Sequence record: MN642089.1
Strand: one strand, 5' to 3'
DNA length: 64,000 nucleotides
Origin: Klebsiella phage N1M2
The notes beneath the pieces were generated by a model that made no database searches, was not told the origin of the DNA, and worked only from the letters and a program-made list of their open reading frames with translations. Made by a program: the position numbers and the translations under genes. This document shows, in pieces, positions 4,109 to 62,234 of the stretch; the stretch's first letter is position 1, and each line of letters starts with the position of its first letter.

Positions 4109-4136
4109 CTACCACCTACTCTATAGTAGGTGGTAG
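4109..4136. terminator. bidirectional rho-independent terminator (12-bp perfect stem CTACCACCTACT/AGTAGGTGGTAG)
   Basis: Perfect inverted repeat with a 4-nt loop between convergent genes, followed by CTTTATATGTTTGTTTTCTTTTT. Confidence 0.6.
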
Positions 4137-9588: not shown

Positions 9589-9593
9589 GCTAT

Positions 9594-9624
9594 TACTCAC
9601 CTTCCTTAATTGGAGGGTGGGTAA
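9594..9624 (+). terminator. hairpin terminator (TTACTCACCTTCC / GGAGGGTGGGTAA, with G-U pairs)
   Basis: 13-bp RNA stem allowing U-G pairs, followed by TAAATTTTT. Confidence 0.4.
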
Positions 9625-9635
9625 TAAATTTTTAA

Positions 9636-9931: not shown

Positions 9932-9950
9932 TATCTGGGTGGGAGACTTC

Positions 9951-9968
9951 GGTCTCCCTTTATGTGTA
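9951..9968 (+). terminator. rho-independent terminator GGGAGAC-UUCG-GUCUCCC
   Basis: 7-bp GC-rich stem, UUCG tetraloop, then TTTATGTG. Confidence 0.55.
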
Positions 9969-11633: not shown

Positions 11634-11669
11634 TAACTAGGCTCTGGGGACTTTGAGTCCCTGGAGTCT

Positions 11670-12095
11670 ATGTATTTAGTAATGGCGGTGATTATGGAAT
11701 TATTAAGTATCAATATCAGATTACCTGGTATTAATGACACTACTGTTTTAGAAGTAGTGGGTGCGGGTATTATGGTTATGTTTGATAGCCATAAAAAGTT
11801 AGGAACGGAGTTTGAAGATTTCTTAGTCATGGAAGAAGCCAAGTTGACGATGGGTGACCATTGTAGTGACCTGGTGATAGACGATGTTCAATTTGAACGT
11901 GTATTTCAAGCAGCAGACAGTGCGCTTAAAACTGTCCTAGCAGGACAGAGCGAAGATTTAAAATCTCTGGCTCTCCAAGTTAATGGTGTTGAAGATATCA
12001 TGACTATGGAGTATCCAGGAGTTATTAAGATGTACGTAAGGGAGAATCCGGAAGGTGAACAACTTCTTAGATATCGTCTCTTTAACGTTTGTTAA
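11670..12095 (+). CDS. hypothetical protein (141 aa)
   Basis: ORF; several candidate ATGs near the start; coding-like codon usage. Confidence 0.4.
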   Translation: MYLVMAVIMELLSINIRLPGINDTTVLEVVGAGIMVMFDSHKKLGTEFEDFLVMEEAKLTMGDHCSDLVIDDVQFERVFQAADSALKTVLAGQSEDLKSLALQVNGVEDIMTMEYPGVIKMYVRENPEGEQLLRYRLFNVC

Positions 12096-12450: not shown

Positions 12451-12469
12451 CTTATCTGGAGATTTACAA

Positions 12470-13030: not shown

Positions 13031-13036
13031 TCAACT

Positions 13037-13063
13037 CCTTACCCTTCCTAGTGGAGGGTAAGG
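13037..13063 (+). terminator. rho-independent terminator (CCTTACCCTTCC ... GGAGGGTAAGG)
   Basis: Hairpin plus TTATATGTTTATCTTTC. Confidence 0.5.
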
Positions 13064-13097
13064 GTTATATGTTTATCTTTCTATAGGTCCTTTTCTA

Positions 13098-14146: not shown

Positions 14147-14152
14147 CACATA

Positions 14153-14180
14153 CCTACTCACCCAATTAAGGGTGAGTAGG
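14153..14180 (+). terminator. rho-independent terminator (perfect 11-bp stem CCTACTCACCC/GGGTGAGTAGG)
   Basis: Perfect stem, 6-nt loop, then ATTTATATGCTTTCTTTTATTTTG. Confidence 0.6.
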
Positions 14181-14220
14181 ATTTATATGCTTTCTTTTAT
14201 TTTGTTTCAGACCTATATTA

Positions 14221-14244
14221 TTAATATGTGCTTACACATATTAA
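14221..14244. promoter_or_regulatory. perfect palindrome TTAATATGTG-CTTA-CACATATTAA (candidate operator/protein-binding site)
   Basis: 10-bp perfect arms, ~100 nt upstream of the HNH endonuclease gene in AT-rich DNA. Confidence 0.4.
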
Positions 14245-14347
14245 GTTAGTATGAAGGCTATGCATATCTTTTTACTACGAAGAGTATTTTAATACTATGT
14301 GTTAGATAAAATGACTAATAATGAAATATTAACAAATAGGAAGCATA

Positions 14348-15412: not shown

Positions 15413-15418
15413 ACATAA

Positions 15419-15445
15419 CCTCTACTCCCATCACGGGAGTAGAGG
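15419..15445. terminator. bidirectional terminator hairpin (perfect 11-bp stem CCTCTACTCCC/GGGAGTAGAGG)
   Basis: Lies between the convergent HNH gene and the minus-strand operon. Confidence 0.5.
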
Positions 15446-15454
15446 TCTGTTATG

Positions 15455-17636: not shown

Positions 17637-17673
17637 AGGTTTACCTATCACTTATATTAAAAGGGTTCATAAC

Positions 17674-18429: not shown

Positions 18430-18461
18430 TTCATCCATTTATCCTTATATAAGGTATTAAC

Positions 18462-20075
18462 ATGTCTGAGAATATTCCTCAAACTGAAATGCAGGAGAAC
18501 GTGAACAAGGAAGCTGCAATCATTGCACTTACCAATGCTCTCGTTGGTCCAGCAGATGACTACGATCCATCACTGCCTATGTTCCTCGGTACCATGAAAG
18601 AAGAACATGAGGCGATCTACAAAACAGCAGTTGCTTTCCTGGGTTGGCGTGATGCAGCTTCTTCCGGTAAAGAACGTGAGGCTAATGTCCTCAAAGATCG
18701 TTTCGAAGAATTACGCGATACTCACTTTGAAGGCGTAGAAGAAGAATTACTTGGTAACATGCTTACCAACTACTTCCGATTCTATTTCAATGGCTTTGAT
18801 CGCGGGATGGTTCGTAATGCTACAGTTGATGTTACTCGTCAACGTAAAGTTATCAATACGGTACCAATGAAGAACGGCCAACGGTTGGGATTGATTTCTG
18901 CGATTACCCCTACCGTTAAGAGCGAAATGGGTGTGCGTGAACGTATGCGTCGTACATTCCTCAAAGCTTCAGGTTCTCCAGATAGCTTCAACGTTATCCT
19001 GGCTAACTCTCTGATCTTCTTACGTGTTAAGATTCCTACTCCATTGGATCTGGTTCGTCTTATTAACGACATCGTTACCAAGCTTCATATGTACGGTGAA
19101 CGTTATAACCAAACCTCTATCCATTTGGAACGTGCGGGTATCAGTCAGATCCTGGTAGACTTCATTCTGGATCGTGTCAGCTACCACAGCGTCAAAGGTA
19201 TCGATGATCCTATCGAACTGAAGAACTATATCCTCAGTAATGACATCAACCACTTAGCCCAAGCTCTGCTGAAAATCACTTCCCCTAAAGGTGTGACTTA
19301 CCGCATGAACTGCCTGGCTAATAAATGTGGCTGGTCTTCCAATATGGTAATCGATCCAGCTAACATGCTTCTGTATGTTGAAGAAGATCAGCCTGAAGAA
19401 CGTCGGACTCTTCTGTTCAAATTAGTTAACGAAGGTCTTAAACTTTCTCCTGAAGATCTAGCGAATAACCCTCCTGTCTATAAAGACAAAGATGGTAACG
19501 TTCTGGATACCACGGTTGAACTGACAGAAGGTAATGGTCGTCTGGTCATTGATGTTCCTTATCTGTCAGAATACTTCCAGGCTTATGATGAAATGGCTGC
19601 TCGCATTAACCCTGAGTTACGTGAGTTGGCTGTTAAGTTTGCTAACCCTCAGGTGTTTGATGAGAAACGTCGTGAGTATCTGGCCCAGATGCGTGGTCAC
19701 GAATATATCCAATGGTTCCGTTCAATGGAGTTTGATCCACCGGCTGACTCTGAAGGAACTAAGGACGTTATCTATCGTGAAGAGAACCCGAAAGAGTTTG
19801 ATGAAGGTTTGATGGATATCTTCAACAAAGACGATCAGATGTATTATCGTGCTCTGGAAAAGGTTATTACAATCGCACCTCGCATGACCTATACCTATGT
19901 GGGTATTTGTGAAGACGAGTGTCCGAACTGTAAAGAAAAATCAGAAGGGAAAGATCAGGACCAGTTACATAACTTTACTCCTATCGATCCTATCCTGAAT
20001 TTTTTCGACCATACCCGAATGATGATCTCAATCAGAACCGGTCAGCAGAGTTTACAAGAGGACGGTCTTTCCTAA
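18462..20075 (+). CDS. hypothetical protein (537 aa); C-terminal CEDECPNC Cys pair
   Basis: Long ORF with RBS context AAGGTATTAAC-ATG-TCT shared with other highly expressed genes. Confidence 0.65.
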   Translation: MSENIPQTEMQENVNKEAAIIALTNALVGPADDYDPSLPMFLGTMKEEHEAIYKTAVAFLGWRDAASSGKEREANVLKDRFEELRDTHFEGVEEELLGNMLTNYFRFYFNGFDRGMVRNATVDVTRQRKVINTVPMKNGQRLGLISAITPTVKSEMGVRERMRRTFLKASGSPDSFNVILANSLIFLRVKIPTPLDLVRLINDIVTKLHMYGERYNQTSIHLERAGISQILVDFILDRVSYHSVKGIDDPIELKNYILSNDINHLAQALLKITSPKGVTYRMNCLANKCGWSSNMVIDPANMLLYVEEDQPEERRTLLFKLVNEGLKLSPEDLANNPPVYKDKDGNVLDTTVELTEGNGRLVIDVPYLSEYFQAYDEMAARINPELRELAVKFANPQVFDEKRREYLAQMRGHEYIQWFRSMEFDPPADSEGTKDVIYREENPKEFDEGLMDIFNKDDQMYYRALEKVITIAPRMTYTYVGICEDECPNCKEKSEGKDQDQLHNFTPIDPILNFFDHTRMMISIRTGQQSLQEDGLS

Positions 20076-21066: not shown

Positions 21067-21072
21067 TAAGCT

Positions 21073-21103
21073 CCCTACTCCCTCCGAAAGGAAGGGGTAG
21101 GGG
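21073..21103 (+). terminator. rho-independent terminator with a GAAA loop (CCCTACTCCCTCC-GAAA-GGAAGGGGTAGGG)
   Basis: 13-bp stem with one mismatch, then TTTTATGTTG. Confidence 0.55.
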
Positions 21104-21152
21104 TTTTATGTTGTCTATTGATTTTCAAGCAGATATTATTAACATGTATAGG
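21104..21152 (+). promoter_or_regulatory. bipartite conserved intergenic element TTGTCTATTGA ... GCAGATATTATTAACATGTATAGG
   Basis: Both halves are repeated at 52047..52109 in the same order after a terminator. Confidence 0.5.
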
Positions 21153-21169
21153 TAATGAAGGAAACTGAA

Positions 21170-21685
21170 ATGAAAGATACATTTAAGAATATAGGTGAGT
21201 CAGAAGTTAAACATCCAGTCCAAGCTGGCAAAGATCTGATTAACCTGCTGACTAAGAAACGTCGCCATGCGTTCAACTACGTCAACCCAATCCCAGCGGA
21301 ACAATCTTTCCGTGACTGTATTCATTATGACGCTCTGTGGATCGGTAGTAACACAGTTAATACGGTAAAGGAAATCGCTGCTCTGAGCTTCCGCACCAAA
21401 AACCTATTTGAAACTTCTATCATACACCCGTCATATAAGTGCAGGGTGGTTTATGGACAACCGTGTATTGATAGTGAGAGCGATGGTATTATTATCCCAC
21501 TTAAGGCTCATGGTGAAGACTGTCATGCACGTCTGTTCGTTTCTGAGTATCGTGATATCGTTCTCCAGGTTAAACTGGGTCGTGAGTTTGAGTGGTTGAG
21601 TCTACCAGTTAAATCCCACCAAGTTAAAGCAGCTTACGATAAGCTGTTTCCTACCATCCAAGTTCCTAACTGTCCCGTGGAGTAA
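21170..21685 (+). CDS. hypothetical protein (171 aa from the ATG with an AAGGAAA RBS; the ORF track starts at 21155)
   Basis: Preceded by the CAGATATTAT promoter-like element; shares an exact AEQSFRD heptapeptide with 13697..14146. Confidence 0.55.
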   Translation: MKDTFKNIGESEVKHPVQAGKDLINLLTKKRRHAFNYVNPIPAEQSFRDCIHYDALWIGSNTVNTVKEIAALSFRTKNLFETSIIHPSYKCRVVYGQPCIDSESDGIIIPLKAHGEDCHARLFVSEYRDIVLQVKLGREFEWLSLPVKSHQVKAAYDKLFPTIQVPNCPVE

Positions 21686-21687
21686 TA

Positions 21688-21966
21688 ATGACTACTTCTA
21701 CAGTACGCCCAGGTGAACTCACTAATGAGAAATGGGTGGTATCATCCAAAGGTCGTCCATCTAGTTGTGTCGAGATCTCTGCTGTCCAGAATGGCGCACA
21801 TGGTCAGATATCTTGGGGATGGCCAGGGCCAGATAAGATAATCGTACTTGATGATAAAACTGGTTATCATCCAGACTTACCAAATGCTGCAGAGTTAATC
21901 AAAGATGCTGAAGAACTCGCACAAGTGATCTGTGATCACAAAAACAAGAAGTTAGGTTTACTGTAA
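21688..21966 (+). CDS. hypothetical small protein (92 aa)
   Basis: ORF immediately after the previous stop. Confidence 0.5.
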   Translation: MTTSTVRPGELTNEKWVVSSKGRPSSCVEISAVQNGAHGQISWGWPGPDKIIVLDDKTGYHPDLPNAAELIKDAEELAQVICDHKNKKLGLL

Positions 21967-21999
21967 TAATAACCCTCACCAATAAAAAGGAAATACAAT

Positions 22000-22539
22000 A
22001 TGTTACTCAATCAAGAAAATATCACCACCCTGGCTCAGAAACTGTTCGATGCTATCAAAGGTGCTGAACCAAAAGCAACTTCCATTGAAGTTGATAATCT
22101 GGCACTCATCAAAATCATTGATACCGAATGTGACCACGGGATGGGTACCGATGTATTCGGCGTCTACGTTAATGGTAAACGTCAGGGCGTGATACGTCTT
22201 CCATCGGAACTGGGAACAGCCGACCCTGTTCGCGCCACACTATCTCGCCTTATTGGTGAAACGATCAAGAGCAAAGTGGAAGCTATTACTTCCCACATCC
22301 TCTGTGGTGAAGAAGGTATGCCGAACCCAACCTATGTGACTCGCACTCTTAGCATCATTAAGAAGTGTGAAACCACGCAGGGTATCATGGTATACCAGAT
22401 TATCGTTAATGGTGAAATGGTTGCTAACATTCCTCATGAAGGTAAGATCACCGAACATGACTGGATCTACATCACCGTTCGTGGTATTATCCACAACGCA
22501 GCAATGGATGGCGATTATCATCTGACCGTACTCGAATAA
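22000..22539 (+). CDS. hypothetical protein (179 aa)
   Basis: ORF; last gene of the + block before the bidirectional terminator at 22550..22578 and a T9 run. Confidence 0.55.
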   Translation: MLLNQENITTLAQKLFDAIKGAEPKATSIEVDNLALIKIIDTECDHGMGTDVFGVYVNGKRQGVIRLPSELGTADPVRATLSRLIGETIKSKVEAITSHILCGEEGMPNPTYVTRTLSIIKKCETTQGIMVYQIIVNGEMVANIPHEGKITEHDWIYITVRGIIHNAAMDGDYHLTVLE

Positions 22540-22549: not shown

Positions 22550-22578
22550 CCCTACCCCTCCTTTCGGAGTGGGTAGGG
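22550..22578. terminator. bidirectional terminator (CCCTACCCCTCC ... GGAGTGGGTAGGG)
   Basis: Lies between convergent genes; a T9 run at ~22592..22600. Confidence 0.55.
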
Positions 22579-28475: not shown

Positions 28476-28507
28476 CTCCCTACCCTTCCTTACGGAGGGG
28501 TAGGGGG
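28476..28507. terminator. bidirectional terminator (CTCCCTACCCTTCC-UUAC-GGAGGGGTAGGGGG)
   Basis: 14-bp stem with two U-G pairs, between convergent genes. Confidence 0.55.
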
Positions 28508-38597: not shown

Positions 38598-38628
38598 TAT
38601 CAGTCTTCTTAAAGCATAATGCTTAATG

Positions 38629-38656
38629 AGAGTAGGGGCCTTCGGGCTCCTACTCT
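38629..38656 (+). terminator. rho-independent terminator AGAGTAGGGGCC-UUCG-GGCTCCTACTCT
   Basis: 12-bp stem, UUCG tetraloop, then TATATGTTTGCTTTT; follows the highly expressed gene 37374..38597. Confidence 0.6.
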
Positions 38657-38705
38657 TATATGTTTGCTTTTAAGAATACTTTGATCTCACATAGGAGTTA
38701 TTTTA

Positions 38706-41690: not shown

Positions 41691-42398
41691 ATGACTTACT
41701 CATTTCAGAATGAGGTTATTAAAAGTCTACCTACTGGTCATCGCTTTATAAGAATGGTTTCTGGGGCTAACAATACCACCATTGTCTACACTGTGAAGAA
41801 TGCAGTTAAACATGAGCTGGTAATGCCCAAGATGGATATCAGTCGGTATTTTTACAAGATACCGACTATCTTCATACCTGAGAACAGCTCCTATAACGAC
41901 CTGTATGAACTCATCAGCGAGCGTTATGGATTAGGGTTACAGAAGAACATTGATTTCTACAATAGCGCCACAGTGCCCGTTACAGAGAGCCCTGTTTATA
42001 TGGAGCTTCCTGTCAATGAGTCTTGTTGCGCTTATTATGGAAACATCCGTTGTTATGTTCTTAAACATAACTTGTATAATGGTAACCTTAAACCCGTTCG
42101 TGATTTAACCAGTACAGACGGTAGTACTTACCTCAACAAACTAAAAATCAAATCTTACTTTATAGGTAAATTGATTTGTTTAGCTGATCATCTAACTATC
42201 GGTGATACACTAACTCCTGACATTGTTGAATTGTTAGTTAGTGATATGGATGGTCAAACTTATCCAGGTGCTTCAGATAGTTATCGCTATATCCTTTCTG
42301 ATGCTAAAGTTATTGATCTTTTTAATGATGGTATTTCTGACATACTTCTAATTGAAACATTTCAAGGTTTACTTTCTATTCGTTATTCTCTTAATTAA
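41691..42398 (+). CDS. hypothetical protein (235 aa)
   Basis: ORF; followed by the 260-nt ORF-free region. Confidence 0.55.
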   Translation: MTYSFQNEVIKSLPTGHRFIRMVSGANNTTIVYTVKNAVKHELVMPKMDISRYFYKIPTIFIPENSSYNDLYELISERYGLGLQKNIDFYNSATVPVTESPVYMELPVNESCCAYYGNIRCYVLKHNLYNGNLKPVRDLTSTDGSTYLNKLKIKSYFIGKLICLADHLTIGDTLTPDIVELLVSDMDGQTYPGASDSYRYILSDAKVIDLFNDGISDILLIETFQGLLSIRYSLN

Positions 42399-42597
42399 AA
42401 ACGATGGTATTGATCTTGAGACTGATACTGCGAGAGTGGTGTTAGTTGGTTGAGTTAGATGTGTTGCGGAGAAACCGAGTGAGGGGAAAGGGGATTTATT
42501 ATATACAGCAGAGCGTAGCGATATCTCTATTCCTATCTCTTCTCTTTACAATGATCAAGAAATAAAAAGATTCAATAATAAACTTTAAATATCATTT

Positions 42598-42625
42598 CCT
42601 CTACTCCTTTTATCGGGAGTAGGGG
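42598..42625 (+). terminator. rho-independent terminator (CCTCTACTCC ... GGGAGTAGGGG) ending an ORF-free 200-nt segment
   Basis: Hairpin then TTTGATGTTATG; lies 200 nt downstream of the nearest stop codon. Confidence 0.45.
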
Positions 42626-42660
42626 TTTGATGTTATGATTGTTCTAAAGAGGAATTAATT

Positions 42661-44247
42661 ATGTTTAAAGTAAAGATTCCTTCCTTTGAGACTTACAAGA
42701 TAGCTACAAGACCAGTTGTCTTAACTTCACTCAAACAAGTACTTGAGTATTTCAATATTGATTTAAATCAGAAAATTTATTTCAATGGTGAAGCAGAAGT
42801 TTCTAAACTCTTAGGTGGGGAATATAACGATAAACGTGGTGGGGACTTAAAGACTGATGTAGGGTATGACAACAAGATATTTGTTGAACTAGAAAGAGAG
42901 ATGGGTGATTATAACAATGAACTAGACGGGAACACAACGGATGATACTATCCCACCTGTTTGGTTTGAGCCCATTACCAAATCTAGAATCACACCTAAGT
43001 TCAGTACACGTATCTATCGCGTTACTGTCAATAAGTATATGAAGGATCGTGTTACAGCTGAACGATACCTTGAAGATATCAGAGCTAAAACCTTTGGTGT
43101 TAACTTCAATAGCTTGTTCAGTATGGAAACGCATTACCCAGTTACTTATCCTGTTCTTCAGTGCTTTAAAGAAATCTTCGACAGACTCATTAAAGCCAAA
43201 CAGGTTCCGGAAGACACTAACTTCATTGATTGGATGTTAAAGAACTCTGTCATTCCTTCTGGAATCTTGAGAAACGTCATTGGTAATAACCCAGTATACG
43301 TTTTCAAACAGTGCATTGACAATATCGGAATCAATATGGAAAACCCCAATATGGCCACCGTAACAAGTGGTGCTTATATTGGTAAGTTTGAAGTTAGCTT
43401 CCAATATTGGTTCTATTGGTCAGAACACAAGAACTGGATCTTTGAATACCCACTGCAAGTATATCAACAACCTATGCCGTATGAGTATATGCCAGAAGTA
43501 TTCGAAGAGAATATCCAGAGCAATACCAACAAACAGTTCTTCGAGTCGGCAGCTGCTAGATCTGTTTGGGGTAGTTCAGATATCATGCCTCTATATCACG
43601 TTCTTCCTAATTTTGATAACTGGAGACCTGAACCAACTAAATGGATTTCTCCCCAGTTACAAATTGTGACGAATGTTGAAGATGTACAAGAACAAGTATT
43701 GATCAACATCAAAGATATTCATGGCTTTGATTGGGATCCTACTTTTATTCATTACATCATGAAGTACCGTGATAAAGTGACTAACCGTCATAATAACCCG
43801 ATGCAGTTCAAAGTTTATTCTGATGAAACAGAAGTTTTAAATAGTCAGATACAGCTGAGAGAGAACGGCGATCTAGTTATTATACGTCCACCGAGAATGT
43901 CCAGTATTTACCGTGTTACATTTAACTTAGATTATGCTTTACGTTTATACAGTGAAATCTGCATAAAGGATTTCCTGGATGATCCTGAGTATACTAAATG
44001 GATTATTGGGATTCTCTACCCGCATTGGCACTTACGTGATGATTGGGGTAACGGTGGGATAGATGATTGGTGGGAGATTCATAACGGGATTGATGTCGGT
44101 GATGGGGATGAGATTGATTTCTATCTTCCATATGGCATGATGGGCTTGACTATTATCGCCCATAATTCAGAAACCTACCAGAAGTACATAACACTTAAAG
44201 AAAGAGGCATTATTAATGGCGCAGACTATTATTGGCCGCGAACCTGA
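42661..44247 (+). CDS. hypothetical protein (528 aa)
   Basis: ORF with a GAGG RBS. Confidence 0.6.
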   Translation: MFKVKIPSFETYKIATRPVVLTSLKQVLEYFNIDLNQKIYFNGEAEVSKLLGGEYNDKRGGDLKTDVGYDNKIFVELEREMGDYNNELDGNTTDDTIPPVWFEPITKSRITPKFSTRIYRVTVNKYMKDRVTAERYLEDIRAKTFGVNFNSLFSMETHYPVTYPVLQCFKEIFDRLIKAKQVPEDTNFIDWMLKNSVIPSGILRNVIGNNPVYVFKQCIDNIGINMENPNMATVTSGAYIGKFEVSFQYWFYWSEHKNWIFEYPLQVYQQPMPYEYMPEVFEENIQSNTNKQFFESAAARSVWGSSDIMPLYHVLPNFDNWRPEPTKWISPQLQIVTNVEDVQEQVLINIKDIHGFDWDPTFIHYIMKYRDKVTNRHNNPMQFKVYSDETEVLNSQIQLRENGDLVIIRPPRMSSIYRVTFNLDYALRLYSEICIKDFLDDPEYTKWIIGILYPHWHLRDDWGNGGIDDWWEIHNGIDVGDGDEIDFYLPYGMMGLTIIAHNSETYQKYITLKERGIINGADYYWPRT

Positions 44248-47515: not shown

Positions 47516-47547
47516 CTAGAACTAGGGGCACCAGCCCCTAGTTCTAG
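47516..47547. terminator. bidirectional terminator, perfect palindrome CTAGAACTAGGGGC-ACC-GCCCCTAGTTCTAG
   Basis: 14-bp perfect arms between convergent genes. Confidence 0.55.
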
Positions 47548-49801: not shown

Positions 49802-51979
49802 ATGTCTCAAGAACAATCCAAGAACTTCCATTTCATCACCTCTAAATCTGGTGCTGATCTTAAAGCGATGATCAACGGTTTTGCAACCAACCCATCTGTA
49901 CACACTGGTAAAGATCTGGGCCTGGAAAGCATCGTTGGTAAAGAGTCCATGTCTCCGACTCTGCGTAACTTTGAAAAAGGTATGGGCTTCAACCAGCGTA
50001 ATGCTGTTAGCTCTGCTATCAGCGGTATTGCTAACTTCAACCAGCGCGCTCAACAGCTGCAGGACATGATCAAACACGGTGGTATGGAATCTTTCTCCAT
50101 GCAGCTGGATCAAGGTGCTGTTGCTCGTCAGAAAGCTGCTACCATCGACCTGAACGCCCGTTCTAACCGTCAGTGGGCTGCTGCTGAAGCTCTGTTCCCG
50201 ACCCTGGTTGTTCCTTACGATCAAGAAGCTCTGGTTCTGCCAATCGACATCGCTGGTGTTGGTGCATATAACAGCTCCGGTAACGCTAACGAAGCTTGGG
50301 AAGATCTACGTCCGATCGCTTCCGTTCTGGCTGACTCCACCTTCAACGCTGGTGACGACCTGAAACTGGTTCCGGTTCTGCCTGCTAACCCTGCTGATGC
50401 AAACACCGCTATGTTTGTTCCTTCAGCTGATTGGGCTCCGTGGGATGCTACTTATGACACTAACGACCTGCTGGGCCGTGAAACTCATAAAACCAACTAC
50501 CTGGCTATTCGCAAAATCAACAACCTGCTGAGCCTGTGCCGTGCTCCTGGTGCTGCTCCGTTCGAGCAGAACGATGAAATCGAAGCTTCTTCGATCCGTC
50601 TGCAGTCCCTGCTGTTCAAAGTTAAAACCAAAGATGGTGAAGGCTTTGTAACTCTGGACACCGAAAACATGGCTGGTGTTGCAGCTCGTCCTTCTACCGG
50701 TGTTACTTCCGATGAAAAACGTCAGATCAACTTCGTTCTGAACGGCATCAACGTAACCAACCTGAAAGACAAAGATGGTAAAGCTACCGAACTGTTCAAG
50801 TCTCTGACCGACGCTGGTCTGAAAGTATTCCTGAGCTTCGAACTGAGCGCTACCTATAGCCGTTCTACCCGTAGCTGGTCTCCGACTGTTTCTCCTGTTG
50901 CTATCGCTTACGTGATCAACAAAGACGGCGACAAACTGGTCCCAGGTACTCCAGGTATGCCAGAAGACATCACCAACCTGATCACTGCTCAGGCACTGGA
51001 AGCTTCTATCCACGGTATCCTGCTGAAACTGAACCATGCTAACACCAACCGTAGCCGTTACGGTACTACTGTTGTTTACGCTAACACCGTTAAGTCTTAC
51101 AACATCAACCGTCGCCAGCCGATCTCCGTTAAGTATCCGATGCTGAACGAAGATAACAACGCTGACGTTCTGGCAATGCTGGTTCAGCAGATGGACGTAA
51201 TGGTTACCCGTAACATGTCTCACGATGCATTTAAAGCGGCTAACATCCACTTTAACTACGTCTACGACAACAACGGTATGAAGATCGTTAACATCAACGA
51301 CGATTCCTCTTCTGTCCTGCCTGGTCAGCACTTCCTGGGTACCACTGGTATCGAAGCGAAACTGAACCTGGTTAAAGAAGTATCTACTCTGGATAGCAAA
51401 GATACTCGTGATAACATCGAAGCAACTCTGGTCAACAAGATCTATGACGTGATCACTGCGCTGCGTGTTAACTCTAACATCTCTGCTCTGAAAGAACTGG
51501 ATAACCGTCCTGAGTCTTACACCATCGTAGCTCACGCTGCTCTGGCTCCGTTCCTGATGACCACCGGTGACTACCGTACCTTCGGTGAAAATGTTAAGTT
51601 CAACATCGTTGAAACTAACATCAGCTCTGAAGTAGGTCGTATGTGGATCGTTCCGACTTCCATGACCAAAGAAGGTTCTGTTGATATCTTCGGTGGTATG
51701 GGCGTCTGTGTAGCTAAAGAACTGCTGGTAATCGAAGGTTCTGTAAACCAGGCCGATCGTCAATACCGCATGATCATCACTCAGCCTGCATACCAGCACC
51801 ACCCGCTGTGCCCAGTTGTTGGCCGTGTGACCATCGAAGACATCCAGGATCTGCTGGGTGACGAAGGTCTGATCACCAAGGTGAACAAACACCTGGCTGA
51901 AATCAGCGGCAAGATTGCTGTTGACAACGGTACTACTGGTACTGGTAAAGAAGTTGCTATCGAAATCCCTAAAGGTTAA
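49802..51979 (+). CDS. very highly expressed 725-aa virion protein, probably the major capsid protein (tail sheath not excluded)
   Basis: Strongest codon bias in the window; size matches jumbo-phage major capsid proteins; the antisense 489-aa ORF is compositionally nonsense; strong UUCG-loop terminator follows. Confidence 0.65.
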   Translation: MSQEQSKNFHFITSKSGADLKAMINGFATNPSVHTGKDLGLESIVGKESMSPTLRNFEKGMGFNQRNAVSSAISGIANFNQRAQQLQDMIKHGGMESFSMQLDQGAVARQKAATIDLNARSNRQWAAAEALFPTLVVPYDQEALVLPIDIAGVGAYNSSGNANEAWEDLRPIASVLADSTFNAGDDLKLVPVLPANPADANTAMFVPSADWAPWDATYDTNDLLGRETHKTNYLAIRKINNLLSLCRAPGAAPFEQNDEIEASSIRLQSLLFKVKTKDGEGFVTLDTENMAGVAARPSTGVTSDEKRQINFVLNGINVTNLKDKDGKATELFKSLTDAGLKVFLSFELSATYSRSTRSWSPTVSPVAIAYVINKDGDKLVPGTPGMPEDITNLITAQALEASIHGILLKLNHANTNRSRYGTTVVYANTVKSYNINRRQPISVKYPMLNEDNNADVLAMLVQQMDVMVTRNMSHDAFKAANIHFNYVYDNNGMKIVNINDDSSSVLPGQHFLGTTGIEAKLNLVKEVSTLDSKDTRDNIEATLVNKIYDVITALRVNSNISALKELDNRPESYTIVAHAALAPFLMTTGDYRTFGENVKFNIVETNISSEVGRMWIVPTSMTKEGSVDIFGGMGVCVAKELLVIEGSVNQADRQYRMIITQPAYQHHPLCPVVGRVTIEDIQDLLGDEGLITKVNKHLAEISGKIAVDNGTTGTGKEVAIEIPKG

Positions 51980-52014: not shown

Positions 52015-52046
52015 CCTCCTACCTCACCTTCGGGTGGGGTAGGGGG
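52015..52046 (+). terminator. rho-independent terminator CCTCCTACCTCACC-UUCG-GGTGGGGTAGGGGG + T5
   Basis: 14-bp stem, UUCG loop, TTTTTGTTG; follows the putative major capsid gene. Confidence 0.65.
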
Positions 52047-52109
52047 TTTTTGTTGTCTATTGAAAATAACTTCTAAAAATGTTTAGGCAGATATTATCTA
52101 CTTGTAAAC
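52047..52109 (+). promoter_or_regulatory. bipartite conserved intergenic element TTGTCTATTGA ... GGCAGATATTATCTACTTGTAAAC
   Basis: Second copy; lies between the capsid-gene terminator and the GTG-start gene. Confidence 0.5.
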
Positions 52110-57352: not shown

Positions 57353-57567
57353 TTGATTTAAAGGTGAACTGTAGAAAAATTAACTAAGTTAATTCATGAA
57401 TTAAAATAGCTATAGATTGGAGAACTGGGCGGAGGCTCGGTTCTCCTTTCTGCCTTCTGTATCGTCCTGTAGAGACTTTAGTTATAAAGACCGATAAGTA
57501 TTAGCCTTTATAGATAAAGCTTCTCAGAAGCTCTTACATAACCGTTAAACATATATAGGAAATAGCA

Positions 57568-58533: not shown

Positions 58534-58622
58534 AATAATGGCCTGAGATTCAGTTGAAAGAAATTTCAGGTCTATATCATCTAAGTGTATAAGACAATAA
58601 ATATTTATACATGGAGATCTAT

Positions 58623-59285
58623 ATGTCTCGTAATATCAAATACTTAGGTTCTAACTGTAAACCGGTAACAACCGAGACTGTAGAATCTAAACAAACAAAT
58701 CAATTAAACTCTAGTAAGGAAATCAAAATGGAAAACGTACAAACTGCAGCTATCGAACTGAACACCACTGTTGAAGCAGTAGAAACCGCTCAACCTGAAA
58801 CCATCGAAGTTACCGCACCTACCAACAACCAACCTGTGGAAGAGAAAGACATGAACATCGAAACTAAAGAAGACAAACTGAAAGAAGCCGCGCAGATCGC
58901 TTCCGAAGTCAGAACCCGTAATGTTAACTGGCACGCTGTATCTGCATCAGCAGTAATTGCCGGCGTGGCTGTGGGCTCTCGCCTGATCGTTGAAAACAAA
59001 ACCACTGAAGAAAATCACAGTGCTCTGGAAATCGTAGGTCGCGTAGCAGCAGTATCAACTGTTGCTGCTGGTATGAGCTTCGTTACTCAGAAGCTCGCTC
59101 CTTCCATTGCAAATAACGACAGCTATAACCTGATGACCACTGCAACAATTGCAAATGGTCTGAGTGTAGCTGACGCATTCTTCGGTGATGACCTGGTTGC
59201 CATGATGAATGGCGCGGGTGCTAAGGTTACTGAAACTGTAACCGAAATGTTCAACAAAGAAGAAGCAGCAGAACTGGAAGCATAA
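58623..59285 (+). CDS. hypothetical protein with C-terminal hydrophobic/amphipathic segments (220 aa from the second ATG)
   Basis: GGAG RBS 9 nt before the second ATG (ORF track starts at 58611); AVSASAVIAGVAVGSRLIV and VAAVSTVAAGMSFV segments. Confidence 0.5.
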   Translation: MSRNIKYLGSNCKPVTTETVESKQTNQLNSSKEIKMENVQTAAIELNTTVEAVETAQPETIEVTAPTNNQPVEEKDMNIETKEDKLKEAAQIASEVRTRNVNWHAVSASAVIAGVAVGSRLIVENKTTEENHSALEIVGRVAAVSTVAAGMSFVTQKLAPSIANNDSYNLMTTATIANGLSVADAFFGDDLVAMMNGAGAKVTETVTEMFNKEEAAELEA

Positions 59286-59291: not shown

Positions 59292-59321
59292 ACCTCCTAC
59301 TCACCGATTGGTGAGTAGGAG
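59292..59321. terminator. bidirectional terminator (perfect 13-bp stem CCTCCTACTCACC/GGTGAGTAGGAGG)
   Basis: Lies between convergent genes; a T8 run at ~59340. Confidence 0.6.
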
Positions 59322-59345
59322 GATTAACTTAGTTACTTATTTTTT

Positions 59346-62234
59346 TTATGATGACCAGAGATCGTCACCGGTAGCTTTAAGATCACCACCAAGATCCGCA
59401 TCTAAGGTTTCTGTTTCTGCATCTGTCAACTCAGCTTGTCCTTCCTCTTTTTGTTCCTGAGGAGTTTCTAAGCCAGTTTCATTATCAGCGTTAGCTTCCA
59501 GGTCTTCATCCAGACTTACTTGAGCTGGATTTTCATCAAGAATAGGTTCTTCTTCTCCTGGCATTGTTTCATCAACACCGGCATTGAACTTATCTTGTTC
59601 TTCTTTCTCAATCTTATCTTTCAGCTTCTCAACTTTAGTCTCAGTCTTCTTACCAGACTTATGGTAATCAGCCAGGAATTTAACAACGTTAGCATCAAGA
59701 TCAGATGCCTTGTTAATGATGTTGAGAATACCACCTGCTTGACCATTGCTAAGGATATCTTCAAACGGCATTGGAAGATTAAAGCGAGTGAAAGCTTCAT
59801 TAAGCAATACAGCTTTAATGGATTCGATGATAGCTTCACCATCAAGTCCAACTTCTTCAGCACGTTTACGAAGCATCTTAGAACCACCACCCAACTCAAC
59901 CCAAGTAGCAGCCAGTTTTTCAACTGCTTCAATCTTGTCTTCAAGTTTGTTAAGGGAATCGGTGATTGCAGGAGTAGGAAGTACAACATAGAAGGTATTC
60001 ATGAAGTCTTTCAGAACAACACGAATAATATCCATTTCTTCTGGAGAGATATCATCATCCCCATCAGTGTTAACTTTCTCTTTAACTTCGTCAGTAATAT
60101 CCAGAGCGCCTTGGTCTGGTTTCATGTACAGCTGTTTGTTTTCTTTAATGATGTCAACCAACTCACCAATGAATGGTTCATTGACGCGCATATGTTTACG
60201 CATGATGTCAGTAAAGTAACGAGAGAATGTACGAGAATAATCGTTAGTTTGGTTACGGAGTAATTCCTGGTCAGCAAGAGCTTCAATAGCGAAGTCATTA
60301 CCCTCACCAGTATCTTCCAGCCAACTACGTTTCAGACCGAAGTAACCTGCAATGGTATTTAACAAGTTATCACGAGTATCGCGATCGATAGACTTGAGAG
60401 GTTCACGTTGCATTTGACCAGCTTGGAAATCAGGAGCAGCCACATATGGGTTATCACCTGGGTTAACCTTAATGGTCAGTGTCTGTTCTTTAAAACGGTC
60501 GAGAACAGCATCAATGGAAACGTTGTTATAACCAATGATATCATGAAGTGTCGGGTTATTAGCGAACCACTCATCACGAGCCATGGCAATGGTGTTACGA
60601 ACATCAATATCTTCACGTTCAGGAGTAATCTCCAATAACGTATGAGAAATGGAGTTCTCTACCTGAGCCAGAGCATCAGCAGTATCAAGTACAGCCAAAC
60701 GAGTAATGTGAAGTTTAGCTTCATCAACTAATGAACGACCAGTACCCAGACGGTTAAAGTCAATAGCGACATAGGTAACATAGTCAGAAGGAATGAATAC
60801 CGCACGAACACCTTGATCACGCATAGCACGAGACCAGAAGAGTTTCTTGTTTTCCTCAGTCAAGGAAATGGTAACATCCTTATGAAGATCACCGTTGATA
60901 AAACCTTCGATCAGTTCTTTCTCAAGAGTAGCTGATGCGAAGTTAACCATCCACTCCATATCTTCATTACACTCAGAACCCTGAGCGACGTTTCGGATAT
61001 GTTCAACGATATCGTTGATAGATCCCATCTTAGGACCATTGGTATCTTGTTCAGCACCTTTGGTCTTCTGATAGAACTTAACGTCAGAGGTAGATTTAAG
61101 TGGTTCACCAGTTTCTGGATCAAGCAGGAAGATATGACCGAATGGTTTACCAATCTCACCGTTGATGTTTACAGGAATAGCTGCTTCAGAAGGCCAGTGG
61201 TAATCAATACCAATACCACGACCATCACCAGTGTAGTATTTACCTTTACGAACAGATAAGGTTTCATTCTTATCGTAATGACGATCTGGATAAAGTTCAT
61301 CCAGCTCTTGTTCTAAGGTTTTTCTGGAAACGGCATTAACGTGGTTGTTGTTGGTCTTGTGGCGTTTTCCTTTCTCTTTAGTCCAGCGGTTATTGATAGC
61401 GTCATCAATACCTTCCAGACCACTGATCTTCTTAAGACGTTCTTCACGTAACTTAGAAGCCAGTTCACCAACTTTAAGAACAACCGGGTTATCAGTAAAA
61501 GTAAACTTAAGCGATGGATGAACGAGATTATATTCTGGTTCCCTTTCACCAACACCACCGTATAAAGCCTCAAAGCCTACAAAGCTACCAGCAGTGTTTT
61601 TCTTTTCTTTGCGGATATAACCAACGTTCTTAGCCTTGTTCCAATCACCACCAACAAACTGATCATTAAGAATGTTCATGGTGGTGGCTTTGATTGCAGA
61701 TTCTTGACCAGCAACATCTACTTCCATACCGTTAATCAAATGGTCGAGAGCAGCATGAGACAGACTTAAATGGACATAAGAACCAGTGCGGAAAAGAACA
61801 TCTTTAATAATTTGAGGCGCTAACTCTTCAAAAGGGTATTTTGTTGTAAAGTAATTTTCAACTTTAGTCAACAATAACTCATGAAGCTTACTGTTTTTGA
61901 TATCAGAACTTTCTGTATCATAGATGAGAAGGTTTCTCTGATCACCGTTAGGTTTCAGCAGAAGGGTAGTCCAGATCTGTTCAGCGCGTTTGATAAAGTG
62001 AGTAATGGTACGCAGGTCATTATTGGCCTGAATGTTATTACTGATAATATCAGAGAGGTTCTTTACCTTAGCCACAGGAGGCTTGGATTTATTCTCTCTA
62101 TCTTTATCATTACGAATAGTGCTATCTTTTACTAGCAAAGAACGCATACTTTTGTCTAAAGGAGACAGGTTATTTAATCTGCCTCTTACTTTAGCCCTGT
62201 CGATCGGTTTTACCCCTTTGGGTAATCTAGACAT
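59346..62234 (-). CDS. large hypothetical protein with an acidic C-terminal tail (962 aa); possibly a portal or other virion protein
   Basis: 2.9-kb minus-strand ORF with an AAGGAGAA RBS; size and acidic C-terminus are compatible with jumbo-phage portal proteins, but no motif is recognised. Confidence 0.65.
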   Translation of the reverse strand: MSRLPKGVKPIDRAKVRGRLNNLSPLDKSMRSLLVKDSTIRNDKDRENKSKPPVAKVKNLSDIISNNIQANNDLRTITHFIKRAEQIWTTLLLKPNGDQRNLLIYDTESSDIKNSKLHELLLTKVENYFTTKYPFEELAPQIIKDVLFRTGSYVHLSLSHAALDHLINGMEVDVAGQESAIKATTMNILNDQFVGGDWNKAKNVGYIRKEKKNTAGSFVGFEALYGGVGEREPEYNLVHPSLKFTFTDNPVVLKVGELASKLREERLKKISGLEGIDDAINNRWTKEKGKRHKTNNNHVNAVSRKTLEQELDELYPDRHYDKNETLSVRKGKYYTGDGRGIGIDYHWPSEAAIPVNINGEIGKPFGHIFLLDPETGEPLKSTSDVKFYQKTKGAEQDTNGPKMGSINDIVEHIRNVAQGSECNEDMEWMVNFASATLEKELIEGFINGDLHKDVTISLTEENKKLFWSRAMRDQGVRAVFIPSDYVTYVAIDFNRLGTGRSLVDEAKLHITRLAVLDTADALAQVENSISHTLLEITPEREDIDVRNTIAMARDEWFANNPTLHDIIGYNNVSIDAVLDRFKEQTLTIKVNPGDNPYVAAPDFQAGQMQREPLKSIDRDTRDNLLNTIAGYFGLKRSWLEDTGEGNDFAIEALADQELLRNQTNDYSRTFSRYFTDIMRKHMRVNEPFIGELVDIIKENKQLYMKPDQGALDITDEVKEKVNTDGDDDISPEEMDIIRVVLKDFMNTFYVVLPTPAITDSLNKLEDKIEAVEKLAATWVELGGGSKMLRKRAEEVGLDGEAIIESIKAVLLNEAFTRFNLPMPFEDILSNGQAGGILNIINKASDLDANVVKFLADYHKSGKKTETKVEKLKDKIEKEEQDKFNAGVDETMPGEEEPILDENPAQVSLDEDLEANADNETGLETPQEQKEEGQAELTDAETETLDADLGGDLKATGDDLWSS

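Follow-up and report, generated by a model that had tools for sequence, protein, structure and literature searches.

The hairpin at 52015-52046 belongs to a family of operon-end stem-loops that very probably serve as transcription terminators of an OBP/Petsuvirus-like, nucleus-forming chimallivirus. The DNA directly shows how they fold, where they lie, how the two strands differ, that they form a family and that they are conserved; the terminating role is deduced from the mapped terminators of relatives. Judged by sequence, the CCTAC/GTAGG family is a lineage-specific version of a conserved terminator motif known from phiKZ and 201phi2-1. As a phenomenon, such a motif is already published for relatives; the strand asymmetry and the TTATG tail described here go beyond the first-pass annotation of this DNA. 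The window is the whole stretch that was analysed, 64,000 nucleotides in length.

By its nearest relatives, the window's phage is an OBP/Petsuvirus-like chimallivirus, a phiKZ-like jumbo phage. Serratia phage Yubaba and Sureiya are closest (89.7% identity), followed by SXP01, OBP and pEt-SU. Phages of the phiKZ type have their own multisubunit RNA polymerases and mapped terminators with a conserved hairpin and a TTAT motif (PMC10914365, PMC11512511). The window's phage is likewise a chimallivirus with multisubunit RNA polymerases of its own, and the relatives' annotation places RNAP beta-like subunit genes at positions orthologous to the window region. We also considered as a termination factor the SF2 helicase encoded at 10089-11633, whose Yubaba counterpart is annotated as 'transcript termination protein'. 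It offers no evidence for such a factor: the protein matches only the generic DEAD and ResIII families, and it has no relative by sequence in the Protein Data Bank.

Operon-end hairpins share a stem core

The first-pass annotation had listed GC-rich hairpins at 12 operon ends. We find a stable stem-loop at every one, and all 12 are strong RNA hairpins with stems of 11-15 bp. Hairpins were called with a stem-extension scan, which misses bulged stems such as that at 22550. The dG of 16 window hairpins ranges from -12 to -27 kcal/mol, with z from -3.5 to -8 for those refolded against shuffles. The sites are as follows (energies in kcal/mol).

4109..4136, unstranded: bidirectional hairpin, CTACCACCTACT-ctat-AGTAGGTGGTAG, at the convergent junction of genes 2613-4085 (+) and 4158-4505 (-); + tail CTTTATATGTTTG
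9591..9626, + strand: variant member, TATTACTCACCTTCC-uuaauu-GGAGGGTGGGTAATA, 3' of gene 9358-9588; dG sense -22.6 vs antisense -14.2; covariance model match E = 7e-6
9941..9958, + strand: short UUCG hairpin without the core, GGGAGAC-uucg-GUCUCCC; tail TTTATG
11638..11670, + strand: core-less hairpin, TAGGCTCTGGGGACT-uug-AGTCCCTGGAGTCTA; the next start codon begins with its final base (A)
13036..13064, + strand: member, TCCTTACCCTTC-cuagu-GGAGGGTAAGGG; tail TTATATGTTTATC; covariance model E = 6e-10
14153..14180, unstranded: member, CCTACTCACCC-aauuaa-GGGTGAGTAGG, at the 5' end of an HNH-endonuclease insertion absent from Yubaba
15417..15447, unstranded: bidirectional member, GACCTCTACTCCC-N5-GGGAGTAGAGGTT, between convergent genes; TATG tails on both strands; dG -22.0 on each strand
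21072..21103, + strand: member, TCCCTACTCCCTCC-gaaa-GGAAGGGGTAGGGG; tail TTTTATGTTGTCTA, an exact match to the phiKZ tail consensus
22550..22578, unstranded: bidirectional member with one bulge, CCCTACCCCTCC-uuuc-GGAGTGGGTAGGG, between convergent genes; tails ATCTATG (+) and GTTATGTTTGTT (-)
28476..28507, unstranded: bidirectional member, CTCCCTACCCTTCC-uuac-GGAGGGGTAGGGGG, between convergent genes; tails ATATG (+) and TATGTTTGTTT (-); dG -30.6 with flanks
38626..38659, + strand: inverted-polarity member with the purine arm 5', ATGAGAGTAGGGGCC-uucg-GGCTCCTACTCTTAT; TATATG overlaps the stem end; z = -6.6
42598..42625, + strand: member, CCTCTACTCCT-uuuauc-GGGAGTAGGGG, then TTTGATGTTATGATTG; 36 nt upstream of gene 42661
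47516..47547, unstranded: bidirectional hairpin at an operon end, CCTAC core lacking, CTAGAACTAGGGGC-acca-GCCCCTAGTTCTAG, at a junction convergent with the helicase gene
52015..52046, + strand: focal candidate terminator hairpin, CCTCCTACCTCACC-uucg-GGTGGGGTAGGGGG; tail TTTTTGTTGTCTA to ~52059; 3' of the major capsid gene 49802-51979
57419..57446, + strand: operon-end hairpin without the core, GGAGAACTGGGC-ggag-GCTCGGTTCTCC; dG -20.6 vs -11.4
59293..59322, unstranded: bidirectional member, CCTCCTACTCACC-gauu-GGTGAGTAGGAGG, between genes 58611-59285 (+) and 59346-62234 (-); dG -24.7 on each strand

The focal hairpin folds at -27.3 kcal/mol on the + strand (z = -5.75; 0/200 shuffles fold equally well) and at -19.2 on the - strand. 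As a separate observation, the gene at 59346-62234 (-) encodes 962 aa, and its orthologue is annotated as a putative portal protein in SXP01 and as a virion structural protein in Yubaba and OBP.

UUCG accounts for three of 10 tetraloops (P = 7e-6). The annotated UUCG loops at 38641 and 52029 and the GAAA loop at 21086 are confirmed; the first UUCG, however, is at 9948-9951, in the hairpin 9941-9958, which lies outside the 12. The UACG loops reported at first were not found, the loop at 28490 being UUAC. Rfam 15 gives no family above its gathering threshold anywhere in the window.

The hairpins had been described as built on a common CCTAC(T/C)C core. Family enrichment of this core is real, but the exact CCTAC is present at just eight of the 12 listed sites and TAC/GTA alone is invariant; 9591, 13036, 15418 and 42598 carry one-off core variants (ATTAC, CTTAC, TCTAC). 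Nor are all operon-end hairpins of one type: those at 11638, 47516 and 57419 lack the core, and that at 38626 has the opposite polarity.

A randomised-sequence control, which the first-pass annotation had named as a possible refutation, rejects chance frequency of the core. CCTACYC occurs 22 times in the window, mostly within hairpin arms, vs 8.9 +/- 2.8 in dinucleotide shuffles, where 22 was reached in 0/100; CCTAC alone is not enriched in the window (65 vs 82 expected). GTAGG is present in 9/16 intergenic hairpin arms vs 1.2 expected by purine-rich-arm shuffling (P<5e-5), and the mean pairwise longest common substring of the arms is 5.15 vs 4.33 +/- 0.16 in arm shuffles. A covariance model built from the window hairpins matches, within the window, solely at intergenic family sites (0 in coding sequence), and it finds at least 40 independent sites in four related phages (E<1e-4). 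Among 59 distinct sequences, 94.9% of cells are paired, 8/10 pairs covary and the core A-U and C-G pairs are invariant, an invariance that is partly circular because the sequences were picked with a model containing the core; in unbiased lists, CTAC/GTAG occurs in about 40-60% of strong clade hairpin loci. The window shuffles, the arm shuffles and the covariance model E-values exclude a chance origin of the shared core and support a true sequence family rather than arbitrary palindromes.

The exact form of one stem type, type B, was found in 9 stretches only, in IMG/VR viral contigs that are all jumbo-phage contigs of 227-285 kb. None was found in bacterial genomes, where ~0.02 would be expected by chance, so this null only places the hosts outside the family.

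The core is kept across phages and varies by lineage

Conservation in related phages had been proposed as a check on the core, and at orthologous sites in five phages the core is fixed. Loop sequences differ (gauu, uaag, guaau, auuu), and substitutions in the apical pairs are compensatory. The focal site has orthologues in Yubaba, SXP01, OBP and pEt-SU, in which the basal CCTCCTACC/GGGGTAGGGGG is invariant and the apical part is exchanged with full compensation. At 59293, CTCCTAC is invariant in five phages with four different loops; at 4109, an A-T pair is replaced by T-A in the OBP orthologue, which also has another loop; at 21072, Yubaba and OBP have the same stem with a gcaa loop. At 42598 all five phages retain TAC/GTA and, in the tail, TTATGATTG; the 38626 site is kept in 5/5, and the core-less hairpin at 57419 is kept with covariation in 5/5. 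We infer selection on the core sequence.

Across lineages, stems fall into what may be called dialects: OBP-like phages, EL and RisingSun carry GTAGG, and phiKZ, 201phi2-1 and Goslar carry GGGAGGGC. GTAGG is found in 7/25 hairpin arms of EL (1.2 expected, P = 3e-4) and in 3/11 of RisingSun (P = 0.006), two phages whose capsid proteins are just 31-33% identical to that of the window. The enrichment is absent from hairpin arms of phiKZ (1/33 arms), 201phi2-1, Goslar, Aeromonas D3 and Vibrio Aphrodite1.

A shared stem could also arise by copying instead of recognition, if terminator modules spread with mobile or shuffled cassettes and were homogenised by recombination, any stable hairpin being sufficient. 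Near-identical stems do occur at non-homologous sites (type B at 21072, 22550 and 28476; the CCTACTCACC type at 14153, 52015 and 59293). A 1.26 kb insertion absent from Yubaba, consisting of a family hairpin and an HNH endonuclease gene, is located exactly between a stop codon and the resident terminator, and further homology breaks relative to Yubaba coincide with promoter or terminator boundaries. At the helicase-convergent site different phages have unrelated hairpins (the SXP01 counterpart of 47516 is a core-type hairpin), indicating turnover. However, neutral copies would have decayed at the distance of EL and RisingSun, whose arms are enriched in GTAGG, and the core persists at orthologous sites despite changes in loops and apical pairs. 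Flanks past the tail are not shared, target-site duplications are absent and covariance matches are confined to gene ends, unlike a REP- or MITE-like mobile palindrome. Copying in place of recognition is a possible but doubtful account. The spread by duplication suggested in the first-pass annotation probably contributes, as the HNH homing-endonuclease cassette carries its own family hairpin, but alone it fails to explain a core shared across genera.

Repeated stem-loops in the promoter-early stem-loop (PeSL) cassettes of T4-type phages are said to have been proposed by Arbiol et al. in 2010 to drive modular shuffling. There as here, stem-loops border variable cassettes, and in the window family hairpins mark the borders of the HNH cassette and of other indels. 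PeSLs, in contrast, flank early promoters and were defined from recombination products, whereas the window cassettes are known from hairpin-bounded indels alone.

Hairpins and tails follow the direction of transcription

Stems begin a median of ~7 nt past stop codons at the 12 listed sites, and the stop-to-stem gap is 2-35 nt at 14/16 sites. Clade-wide, hairpins occupy 70 intergenic loci, of which 45 lie between tandem genes, 23 between convergent genes and only 2 between divergent ones. Where genes are in tandem, the sense strand folds better by a mean of 5.0 kcal/mol, an advantage gained via G-U pairs, and dG(sense) minus dG(antisense) never exceeds +2 (Wilcoxon 2e-8); at convergent sites the absolute difference between strands has a median of 0.9 kcal/mol.

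This asymmetry bears on whether the palindromes could act as DNA, as protein-binding or cruciform sites in recombination, replication or packaging. The GGGTAGGG/CCCTACCC core is indeed conserved as sequence, and the clade encodes an SbcD-like palindrome nuclease (OBP_065). The G-U pairs of tandem stems, however, are C-A mismatches on the other strand and leave an imperfect DNA repeat that favours one RNA strand, and both position and tail track the direction of transcription, which makes a DNA-level element extremely improbable.

The sequence 3' of the stems is also directional, with a U-rich tail of roughly GTTATGTTTGTT on the transcribed side. Of 91 sense tails clade-wide, 40 have TATG no more than 9 nt from the stem, vs a background of ~5%, as in a phiKZ-like tail. 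At tandem sites it is found in 19/45 sense vs 6/45 antisense tails (Fisher 0.004), and at convergent sites in 21/46 tails, on both strands (background ~5%). The tail column consensus is TATGTTTGTT. Window tails are U-rich yet interrupted (UUAUAUGUUU, UUAUGUUUGU) and make poor U-tracts by the E. coli standard; the focal hairpin has the sole tail with five consecutive U, and this capsid terminator keeps TTTTTG, with TATG absent, in 5/5 phages. A lenient terminator scan of positions 1-20000 returned 16 sites vs 11.8 +/- 3.8 in shuffles, an excess that is not significant, and flagged several family hairpins.

Three further candidate features were dropped, being indistinguishable from what purine/pyrimidine-rich arms and U-rich tails would bring about anyway: Shine-Dalgarno/anti-Shine-Dalgarno mimicry (GGAGG/CCUCC in the arms), G-quadruplex formation and short ORFs from the tail ATG.

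Late promoters of phiKZ consist of a TATG whose G is the +1 position, a motif that is necessary but not sufficient (PMC4666361). The tail TATG could be a late initiator of the non-virion RNA polymerase (nvRNAP) in a composite signal, where the polymerase stops and restarts at G or is paused through its TATG pocket. Post-hairpin TATG far over background in both the window clade and phiKZ would fit such a signal, as would TTATGATTG, 24 nt upstream of virion gene 42661 and conserved in five phages, and the promoter-coupled terminators recently reported in bacteria (bioRxiv 10.64898/2026.08.19.745784). Against it, restart at convergent junctions, which have TATG on both strands, would yield antisense RNA only, TTTTTG stands at the capsid terminator in each of the five phages, and hairpins of EL and RisingSun are mostly without TATG. 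A separate AT-rich promoter-like motif is present farther downstream at three tandem sites. UUAUGU may moreover be a plain U-rich tail, with its complement, ACAUAA, providing both a stop codon and the tail for the other direction. We regard a composite signal as unlikely. The phiKZ promoter P119L has TATG and no upstream hairpin, which also speaks against this signal and led us to reject the hairpin as a required part of the late promoter.

The hairpins could instead be RNA processing or stability elements on read-through transcripts, that is, RNase III or RNase E sites or blocks to 3' exonucleases. Stable UUCG and GNRA loops in a 3'-terminal position would guard mRNA ends, and an AU-rich single strand beside a stem would resemble RNase E contexts. 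The stems, however, are 11-15 bp without internal loops, too short for classical RNase III substrates (duplexes of some 20 bp upward, which often contain an internal loop), which speaks against the RNase processing site offered in the first-pass annotation. The relatives' motif, in addition, was defined at mapped termination sites of primary transcripts (PMC10914365, PMC11512511), and their terminators stop transcription in a reporter trap (PMC11512511). Processing as the main role is therefore very unlikely. Among the options first offered, a termination signal for the phage RNAP would fit best, by analogy with the similar mapped terminators of relatives of this phiKZ-like phage.

Proposed mechanism and implications

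In the mechanism we propose, a hairpin of 11-15 bp forms in the nascent RNA, its 5' arm rich in pyrimidines and its 3' arm in purines, and is directly followed by a weak U-rich tail with a consensus of about G-UUAUGUUUGUU. Hairpin and weak hybrid together would release the transcript from the phage's multisubunit RNA polymerases, and the residual 3' hairpin probably also shields the mRNA end. Between tandem genes the element would work one way, G-U pairs stabilising the sense hairpin by ~5 kcal/mol over its complement. Between convergent genes the stem, a Watson-Crick palindrome flanked by tails on both sides, would therefore terminate both transcripts. The stem may be seen as an apical helix like the phiKZ stem (CCYTCC-N4-GGARGG) set on a basal helix, CCUAC/GUAGG, in which UAC/GUA is nearly invariant.

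The conserved sequence had been said to imply a dedicated recognition factor. Conservation does not imply one by itself, since 201phi2-1 terminators also work with the host polymerase (PMC11512511), but such a factor is possible, and the core could be read by the polymerase exit channel or by another phage protein. A more elaborate and distinctly improbable reading is that chimallivirus terminators are polymerase-specific two-part signals read by sequence, the basal helix being joined by a second part that acts as a pause/release or stop-restart signal. The basal CCUAC/GUAGG helix would then make a putative sequence-specific contact with a phage protein, and co-evolution of this partner by lineage would give rise to dialects. 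Candidate contacts are the RNA exit region of the split-subunit polymerase, an mRNA 3'-end binder and a factor exporting mRNA from the phage nucleus.

Under the terminator reading, the hairpin-plus-tail model marks operon ends and the direction of transcription in OBP/EL-like jumbo phages that lack a transcriptome. The hairpins could provide a compact set of uni- and bidirectional terminators, and the lineage dialects are natural variants for swaps. Two questions are sharpened: why specific terminator stems are kept across genera despite non-canonical, sigma-less multisubunit polymerases, and, with the determinants of late-promoter specificity still to be explained (PMC12809450), why the terminator tail holds the very TATG by which those promoters are defined.

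Relation to known terminators

Extra-stable C(UUCG)G loops at gene ends are common to our hairpins and to another large lytic phage, T4, where Tuerk et al. reportedly described UUCG-tetraloop hairpins in intercistronic regions and in terminators in 1988. The T4 hairpins differ in having only the loop in common, with no stem core, and in operating on the host polymerase.

Bacterial bidirectional and promoter-coupled terminators resemble the family in pairing a palindromic stem with complementary flanks between convergent genes and in overlapping termination with initiation signals; unlike it, they have no common stem sequence and carry A/U tracts instead of ACAUAA/UUAUGU flanks (bioRxiv 10.64898/2026.08.19.745784).

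In 201phi2-1, motif A (n = 59) resembles the phiKZ motif, an added motif B yields a longer hairpin, and elongated hairpins terminate more strongly in vivo (PMC11512511). Eight of its terminators, chosen to span its motifs, stop transcription in uninfected Pseudomonas chlororaphis, i.e. with the host polymerase (PMC11512511). Like the window, this phage has a repeated terminator motif, and its two-motif elongated hairpin parallels the apical and basal build found here. It differs in genus and in stem sequence (GCCCCTCC or GCCTCTCC), and function was assayed there, whereas the window hairpins are known from sequence alone.

The closest likeness is within the same virus family: 61 phiKZ terminators, predicted as intrinsic by ARNold, share BCCYCCCCHWWDGGGRRGGBYTTATKYYGT (Putzeys et al. 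2024, PMC10914365). In both sets the hairpin is short and GC-rich, C and U prevailing in its 5' arm and G and A in its 3' arm, the loop is usually of 4 nt, and TTAT(G/T)YYGT stands directly 3'; both stand at dozens of gene ends and are often bidirectional between convergent genes. The phiKZ stems, in contrast, are ~8 bp, of the form GCCCTCCC/GGGAGGGC without the TAC core, whereas window stems are 11-15 bp. The literal phiKZ consensus has 0 matches in the window at <=3 mismatches because of the extra basal CCTAC/GTAGG helix in the stems. The strict phiKZ tail 13-mer matches at two window sites only, and the window-derived covariance model reaches phiKZ sites only at E>0.02. In a scan of 89 kb of phiKZ, GCCCTCCC-N4-GGGAGGGC followed by TTATG occurs at many gene ends, including that of the capsid gene.

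Hairpins with a shared core

A stem-loop is present at all twelve positions where the first-pass annotation had placed a GC-rich operon-end hairpin with a CCTAC/GTAGG core. A stem-extension scan of both strands ranks these among the strongest in the window and adds hairpins at 9941, 11638, 47516 and 57419. The hairpin 3' of the major capsid gene (52015-52046) folds at -27.3 kcal/mol, compared with -13.2 ± 2.5 for its shuffles (z = -5.75), and shuffle refolding gives z of -3.5 to -8.0 for five other hairpins. CCTACYC occurs 22 times versus 8.9 ± 2.8 expected; CCTAC alone is not enriched in the same count. GTAGG is found in 9 of 16 purine-rich arms versus 1.2 after arm shuffling, and G[AG]GTAGG 8 times versus 0.5 expected in the same 16 arms (both P<5e-5). 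In this randomised-sequence control, proposed in the annotation as one way to refute the family, the shared core exceeds shuffle expectation, and composition does not account for it. The 16 hairpin strands align on the core (MAFFT), and RNAalifold predicts from them a helix of 10 pairs, 8 of which covary. The family stands, but the exact core is not at all sites, with one-off variants at 4 of 12. The first UUCG loop lies at 9948-9951 rather than 9958, and the reported UACG loop does not exist, the loop at 28490 being UUAC. The stems group into few near-identical types.

Stem types of the hairpins
21072, 22550 and 28476, with a variant at 13036: type B, CCCTACCCYTCC-N4-GGARGGGTAGGG
14153, 52015 and 59293: CCTACYCACC-N4-6-GGTGRGTAGG
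15418 and 42598: CCTCTACTCC-N5-6-GGGAGTAGRGG
38626: inverted-polarity stem

The exact type-B hairpin is found in only nine stretches in IMG/VR, all jumbo-phage contigs of 227-285 kb, and in no bacterial genome, where chance expectation is also none. In the related Pseudomonas phage OBP, an inverted-polarity hairpin with the purine arm 5' (GGCTAGGGGT, TAGGTAGAAGGGC, AGCTAGAGTGGGG, GGATAGGGGGC) follows each internal-head-protein paralogue (L003, the OBP locus, 6950-10630) and is then trailed by TTTATG, with a parallel at window 38626; their common element is TAGG/CCTA, not GTAGG.

Phage relatives, placement and strand logic

By megablast, the segment 48000-56000, which includes the major capsid gene and an RNA polymerase beta-like gene, matches Serratia phages Yubaba and Sureiya over its full length at 89.7% identity, and Shewanella SXP01, Pseudomonas OBP, Pantoea Survivor, Erwinia AH04 and Edwardsiella pEt-SU at 76-80%. 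Within the phiKZ-like, nucleus-forming jumbo phages, the window phage and these relatives are of the OBP/Petsuvirus-like kind. More RNAP subunit genes lie in the orthologous regions of Yubaba and OBP; phiKZ-like phages are transcribed by two phage-encoded multisubunit polymerases (PMC4666361). One further gene lies in the RNAP gene neighbourhood:

10089-11633 (+): 514-aa SF2 helicase (Pfam DEAD and ResIII)

Its orthologues are annotated 'transcript termination protein' in Yubaba and 'DNA helicase' in OBP. It has no sequence relative in the Protein Data Bank, and nothing links it to the hairpins.

At 14 of 16 sites the stem starts 2-35 nt after a stop codon. For a clade survey, the stem-extension scan and a simple ORF caller were run on the window plus six loci of four relatives; together they yielded 70 hairpin loci between genes (45 tandem, 23 convergent, 2 divergent). 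At tandem junctions the sense RNA is more stable than the antisense by a mean of 5.0 kcal/mol (Wilcoxon 2e-8) and never more than 2 kcal/mol less stable, because G-U pairs turn into C-A mismatches on the opposite strand, whereas at convergent junctions the strands are near equal (median difference 0.9 kcal/mol; Mann-Whitney 6e-5 vs tandem). This pattern is the signature of an RNA-level element, directed by transcription and two-way where transcripts meet. A role at the DNA level is disfavoured by the G-U asymmetry, and an RNase III processing site by the stem length.

The 3' flank, unmentioned in the first-pass annotation, is also conserved, with column consensus G-T-TATGTTTGTT after the stem; the 5' flank is often the complement of this tail, (C)ATAAC, frequently with the stop codon inside. 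At tandem sites 19/45 sense versus 6/45 antisense tails have TATG no more than 9 nt from the stem (Fisher 0.004), as do 21/46 tails at convergent sites, against a background of ~5% from intergenic TATG density. That the tail doubles as a promoter, or as a pause signal, is attractive, since promoter-coupled terminators are reported in bacteria and TATG is the late-promoter initiator (PMC4666361). However, convergent sites carry TATG tails on both strands, all five phages read TTTTTG at the capsid terminator, phiKZ P119L lacks a hairpin upstream, and a separate AT-rich promoter-like motif lies downstream at three tandem sites.

Conservation in close relatives

Trained on the window's own hairpins, a covariance model detects no further site elsewhere in the window and at least 40 sites at E<1e-4 in Yubaba, SXP01, OBP and pEt-SU, so that the family, whose conservation the annotation had left to be checked, is found in four related phages. 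Across 59 distinct hits, 94.9% of cells pair, versus 82% when shuffled and ~50% with the partner slid, and in 8/10 pairs both partners change. Within TAC/GTA, the A-U and C-G pairs are invariant in these hits, a partly circular result as the model selects for them.

Orthologous sites give a view free of this bias. At the site convergent with the 962-aa gene 59346-62234, whose orthologue is annotated portal only in SXP01, five phages share CTCCTAC, with gauu, gauu, uaag, guaau and auuu as their loops; in pEt-SU the apical part carries a compensated change. The capsid terminator combines an invariant basal CCTCCTACC/GGGGTAGGGGG with a mosaic apex: TCACC-uucg-GGTG in the window (52015-52046) and the more distant OBP and pEt-SU, CTGGGC-aua-GCCTG in Yubaba, the window's closest relative, and SXP01 (compared loci: L001 16616-16648 and L002 24008-24040). 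The pattern points to terminator segments having passed between lineages, or to two old alleles. Site 42598 keeps TAC in an otherwise variable core (CTAC, TTAC, ATTAC). That the core endures across genera, and at orthologous sites despite loop and apical changes, argues for selection on its sequence.

Three of the surveyed places have features of their own:

42398-42661: 263-nt intergenic region with a weaker GAGA-loop hairpin (42420-42447) and family hairpin 42598
47516-47547: helicase-convergent hairpin
57419-57446 (+): core-less hairpin GGAGAACTGGGC-ggag-GCTCGGTTCTCC, 66 nt past a stop codon in the 215-nt intergenic region 57353-57567

Downstream of hairpin 42598, all five phages conserve TTATGATTG, which lies 24 nt ahead of a gene for a virion structural protein and is a candidate late promoter with TATG. 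The helicase-convergent site, compared with L002 19512-19545, has CTAGAAC-type hairpins in the window, Yubaba and OBP, a different stem containing CTAC in pEt-SU, and core-type AACTCCTACCCCTCC in SXP01; this comparison shows putative terminator sequence turning over at a fixed place. The hairpin at 57419-57446 is kept in five phages with compensatory changes and is strongly one-stranded (-20.6 vs -11.4 kcal/mol); it could represent a separate class of terminator or belong to a small RNA.

Copying and recombination certainly contribute to the spread of terminator hairpins, but leave cross-genus conservation of the core unexplained. Homology breaks relative to Yubaba fall at promoter or terminator borders, and include an insertion and a slot with different genes:

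14147-15403: 1.26 kb comprising family hairpin 14153-14180 and an HNH endonuclease gene, exactly between the stop of gene 13697-14146 and the resident bidirectional terminator
14348-15412: the free-standing HNH gene (Pfam HNH_3, E = 7e-6)
21151-22404: genes between promoter-like motif 21131 and terminator 22550, non-homologous to the Yubaba slot (L007 25887-26359)

The insertion looks like a homing-endonuclease cassette with its own terminator. The Yubaba slot has an extra small gene and a hairpin beyond the terminator, and 21151-22404 is a cassette replacement bounded by regulatory elements.

Lineage dialects and probable termination

Repeated terminator hairpins are already published for relatives. 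In phiKZ, ONT-cappable-seq terminators include 61 ARNold-predicted intrinsic ones sharing BCCYCCCCHWWDGGGRRGGBYTTATKYYGT, and six bidirectional regions between convergent genes (PMC10914365). Motif A of 201phi2-1 (n = 59) is similar, a second motif lengthens the stem, and reporter constructs in P. chlororaphis show that eight 201phi2-1 terminators stop transcription (PMC11512511). Scanning 89 kb of phiKZ, we found GCCCTCCC-N4-GGGAGGGC between ACATAA and TTATG at many gene ends, among them GGCCCTCCC-uucg-GGGAGGGC-TTTATGTTGT after the capsid gene. The window hairpins share this architecture and part of the tail, and their apical CCYTCC-N4-GGARGG resembles the phiKZ stem; what sets them apart from phiKZ is the TAC-bearing basal helix. 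Literal membership in the phiKZ motif does not hold: the published consensus has no window match at ≤3 mismatches, 21102 and 52044 are the only places that match the strict tail 13-mer, and the window model reaches only E>0.02 on phiKZ sites.

For six additional chimalliviruses, we repeated the arm-shuffle test on ~42 kb of sequence surrounding the capsid gene. The test shows GTAGG enrichment in the window and in Yubaba, SXP01, OBP and pEt-SU. It extends to EL (7/25 arms vs 1.2 expected, P = 3e-4) and RisingSun (3/11 arms, P = 0.006), two phages with no more than 31-33% capsid protein identity to the window. Enrichment is absent from Aeromonas D3, Vibrio Aphrodite1, phiKZ, 201phi2-1 and Goslar, and GGGAGG/GGAGGG-type arms are significantly enriched instead in phiKZ, 201phi2-1 and Aphrodite1. 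The TATG tail is frequent in the phiKZ/201phi2-1/Goslar and OBP-like groups and rare in pooled EL, RisingSun, D3 and Aphrodite1 loci; in these small samples, stem core and tail thus differ from lineage to lineage independently of each other, in a distribution that does not simply track capsid similarity. New here are the basal helix variant with CCTAC/GTAGG, the finding that it is conserved in the OBP-like, EL and RisingSun lineages, and the statistics on strand logic.

The hairpins, with the structure, placement, strand logic and family conservation observed here, are probably terminators and a phage polymerase signal, one of the options in the first-pass annotation, whose interpretation is partly right; termination is the most likely function by analogy with the mapped and reporter-tested elements of relatives. 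The dedicated recognition factor it also proposed is not required for termination as such, since 201phi2-1 terminators function with host polymerase (PMC11512511). In the best-supported mechanism, a nascent-RNA hairpin and weak U-rich hybrid would end transcription by the phage polymerases, one-way or two-way by gene context, and the hairpin left on the transcript would shield the mRNA 3' end.

A promoter-like motif near probable terminators

AGATATTAT, which follows a TTTnAAG-like sequence, is found ahead of four gene starts at a distance of 24-53 nt:

4533-4541 (+): before gene start 4573
9638-9646 (+): before gene start 9662
21131-21139 (+): before gene start 21155
52089-52097 (+): before gene start 52142

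Three of the four copies are just downstream of family terminators. The motif is similar to an annotated 'putative phage promoter' of EL (TATTTTAAACCTA[CG]ATTAT) and to TTTAAGATCTATATTAC after the phiKZ capsid terminator, and is probably the window phage's AT-rich (early-type) promoter class.
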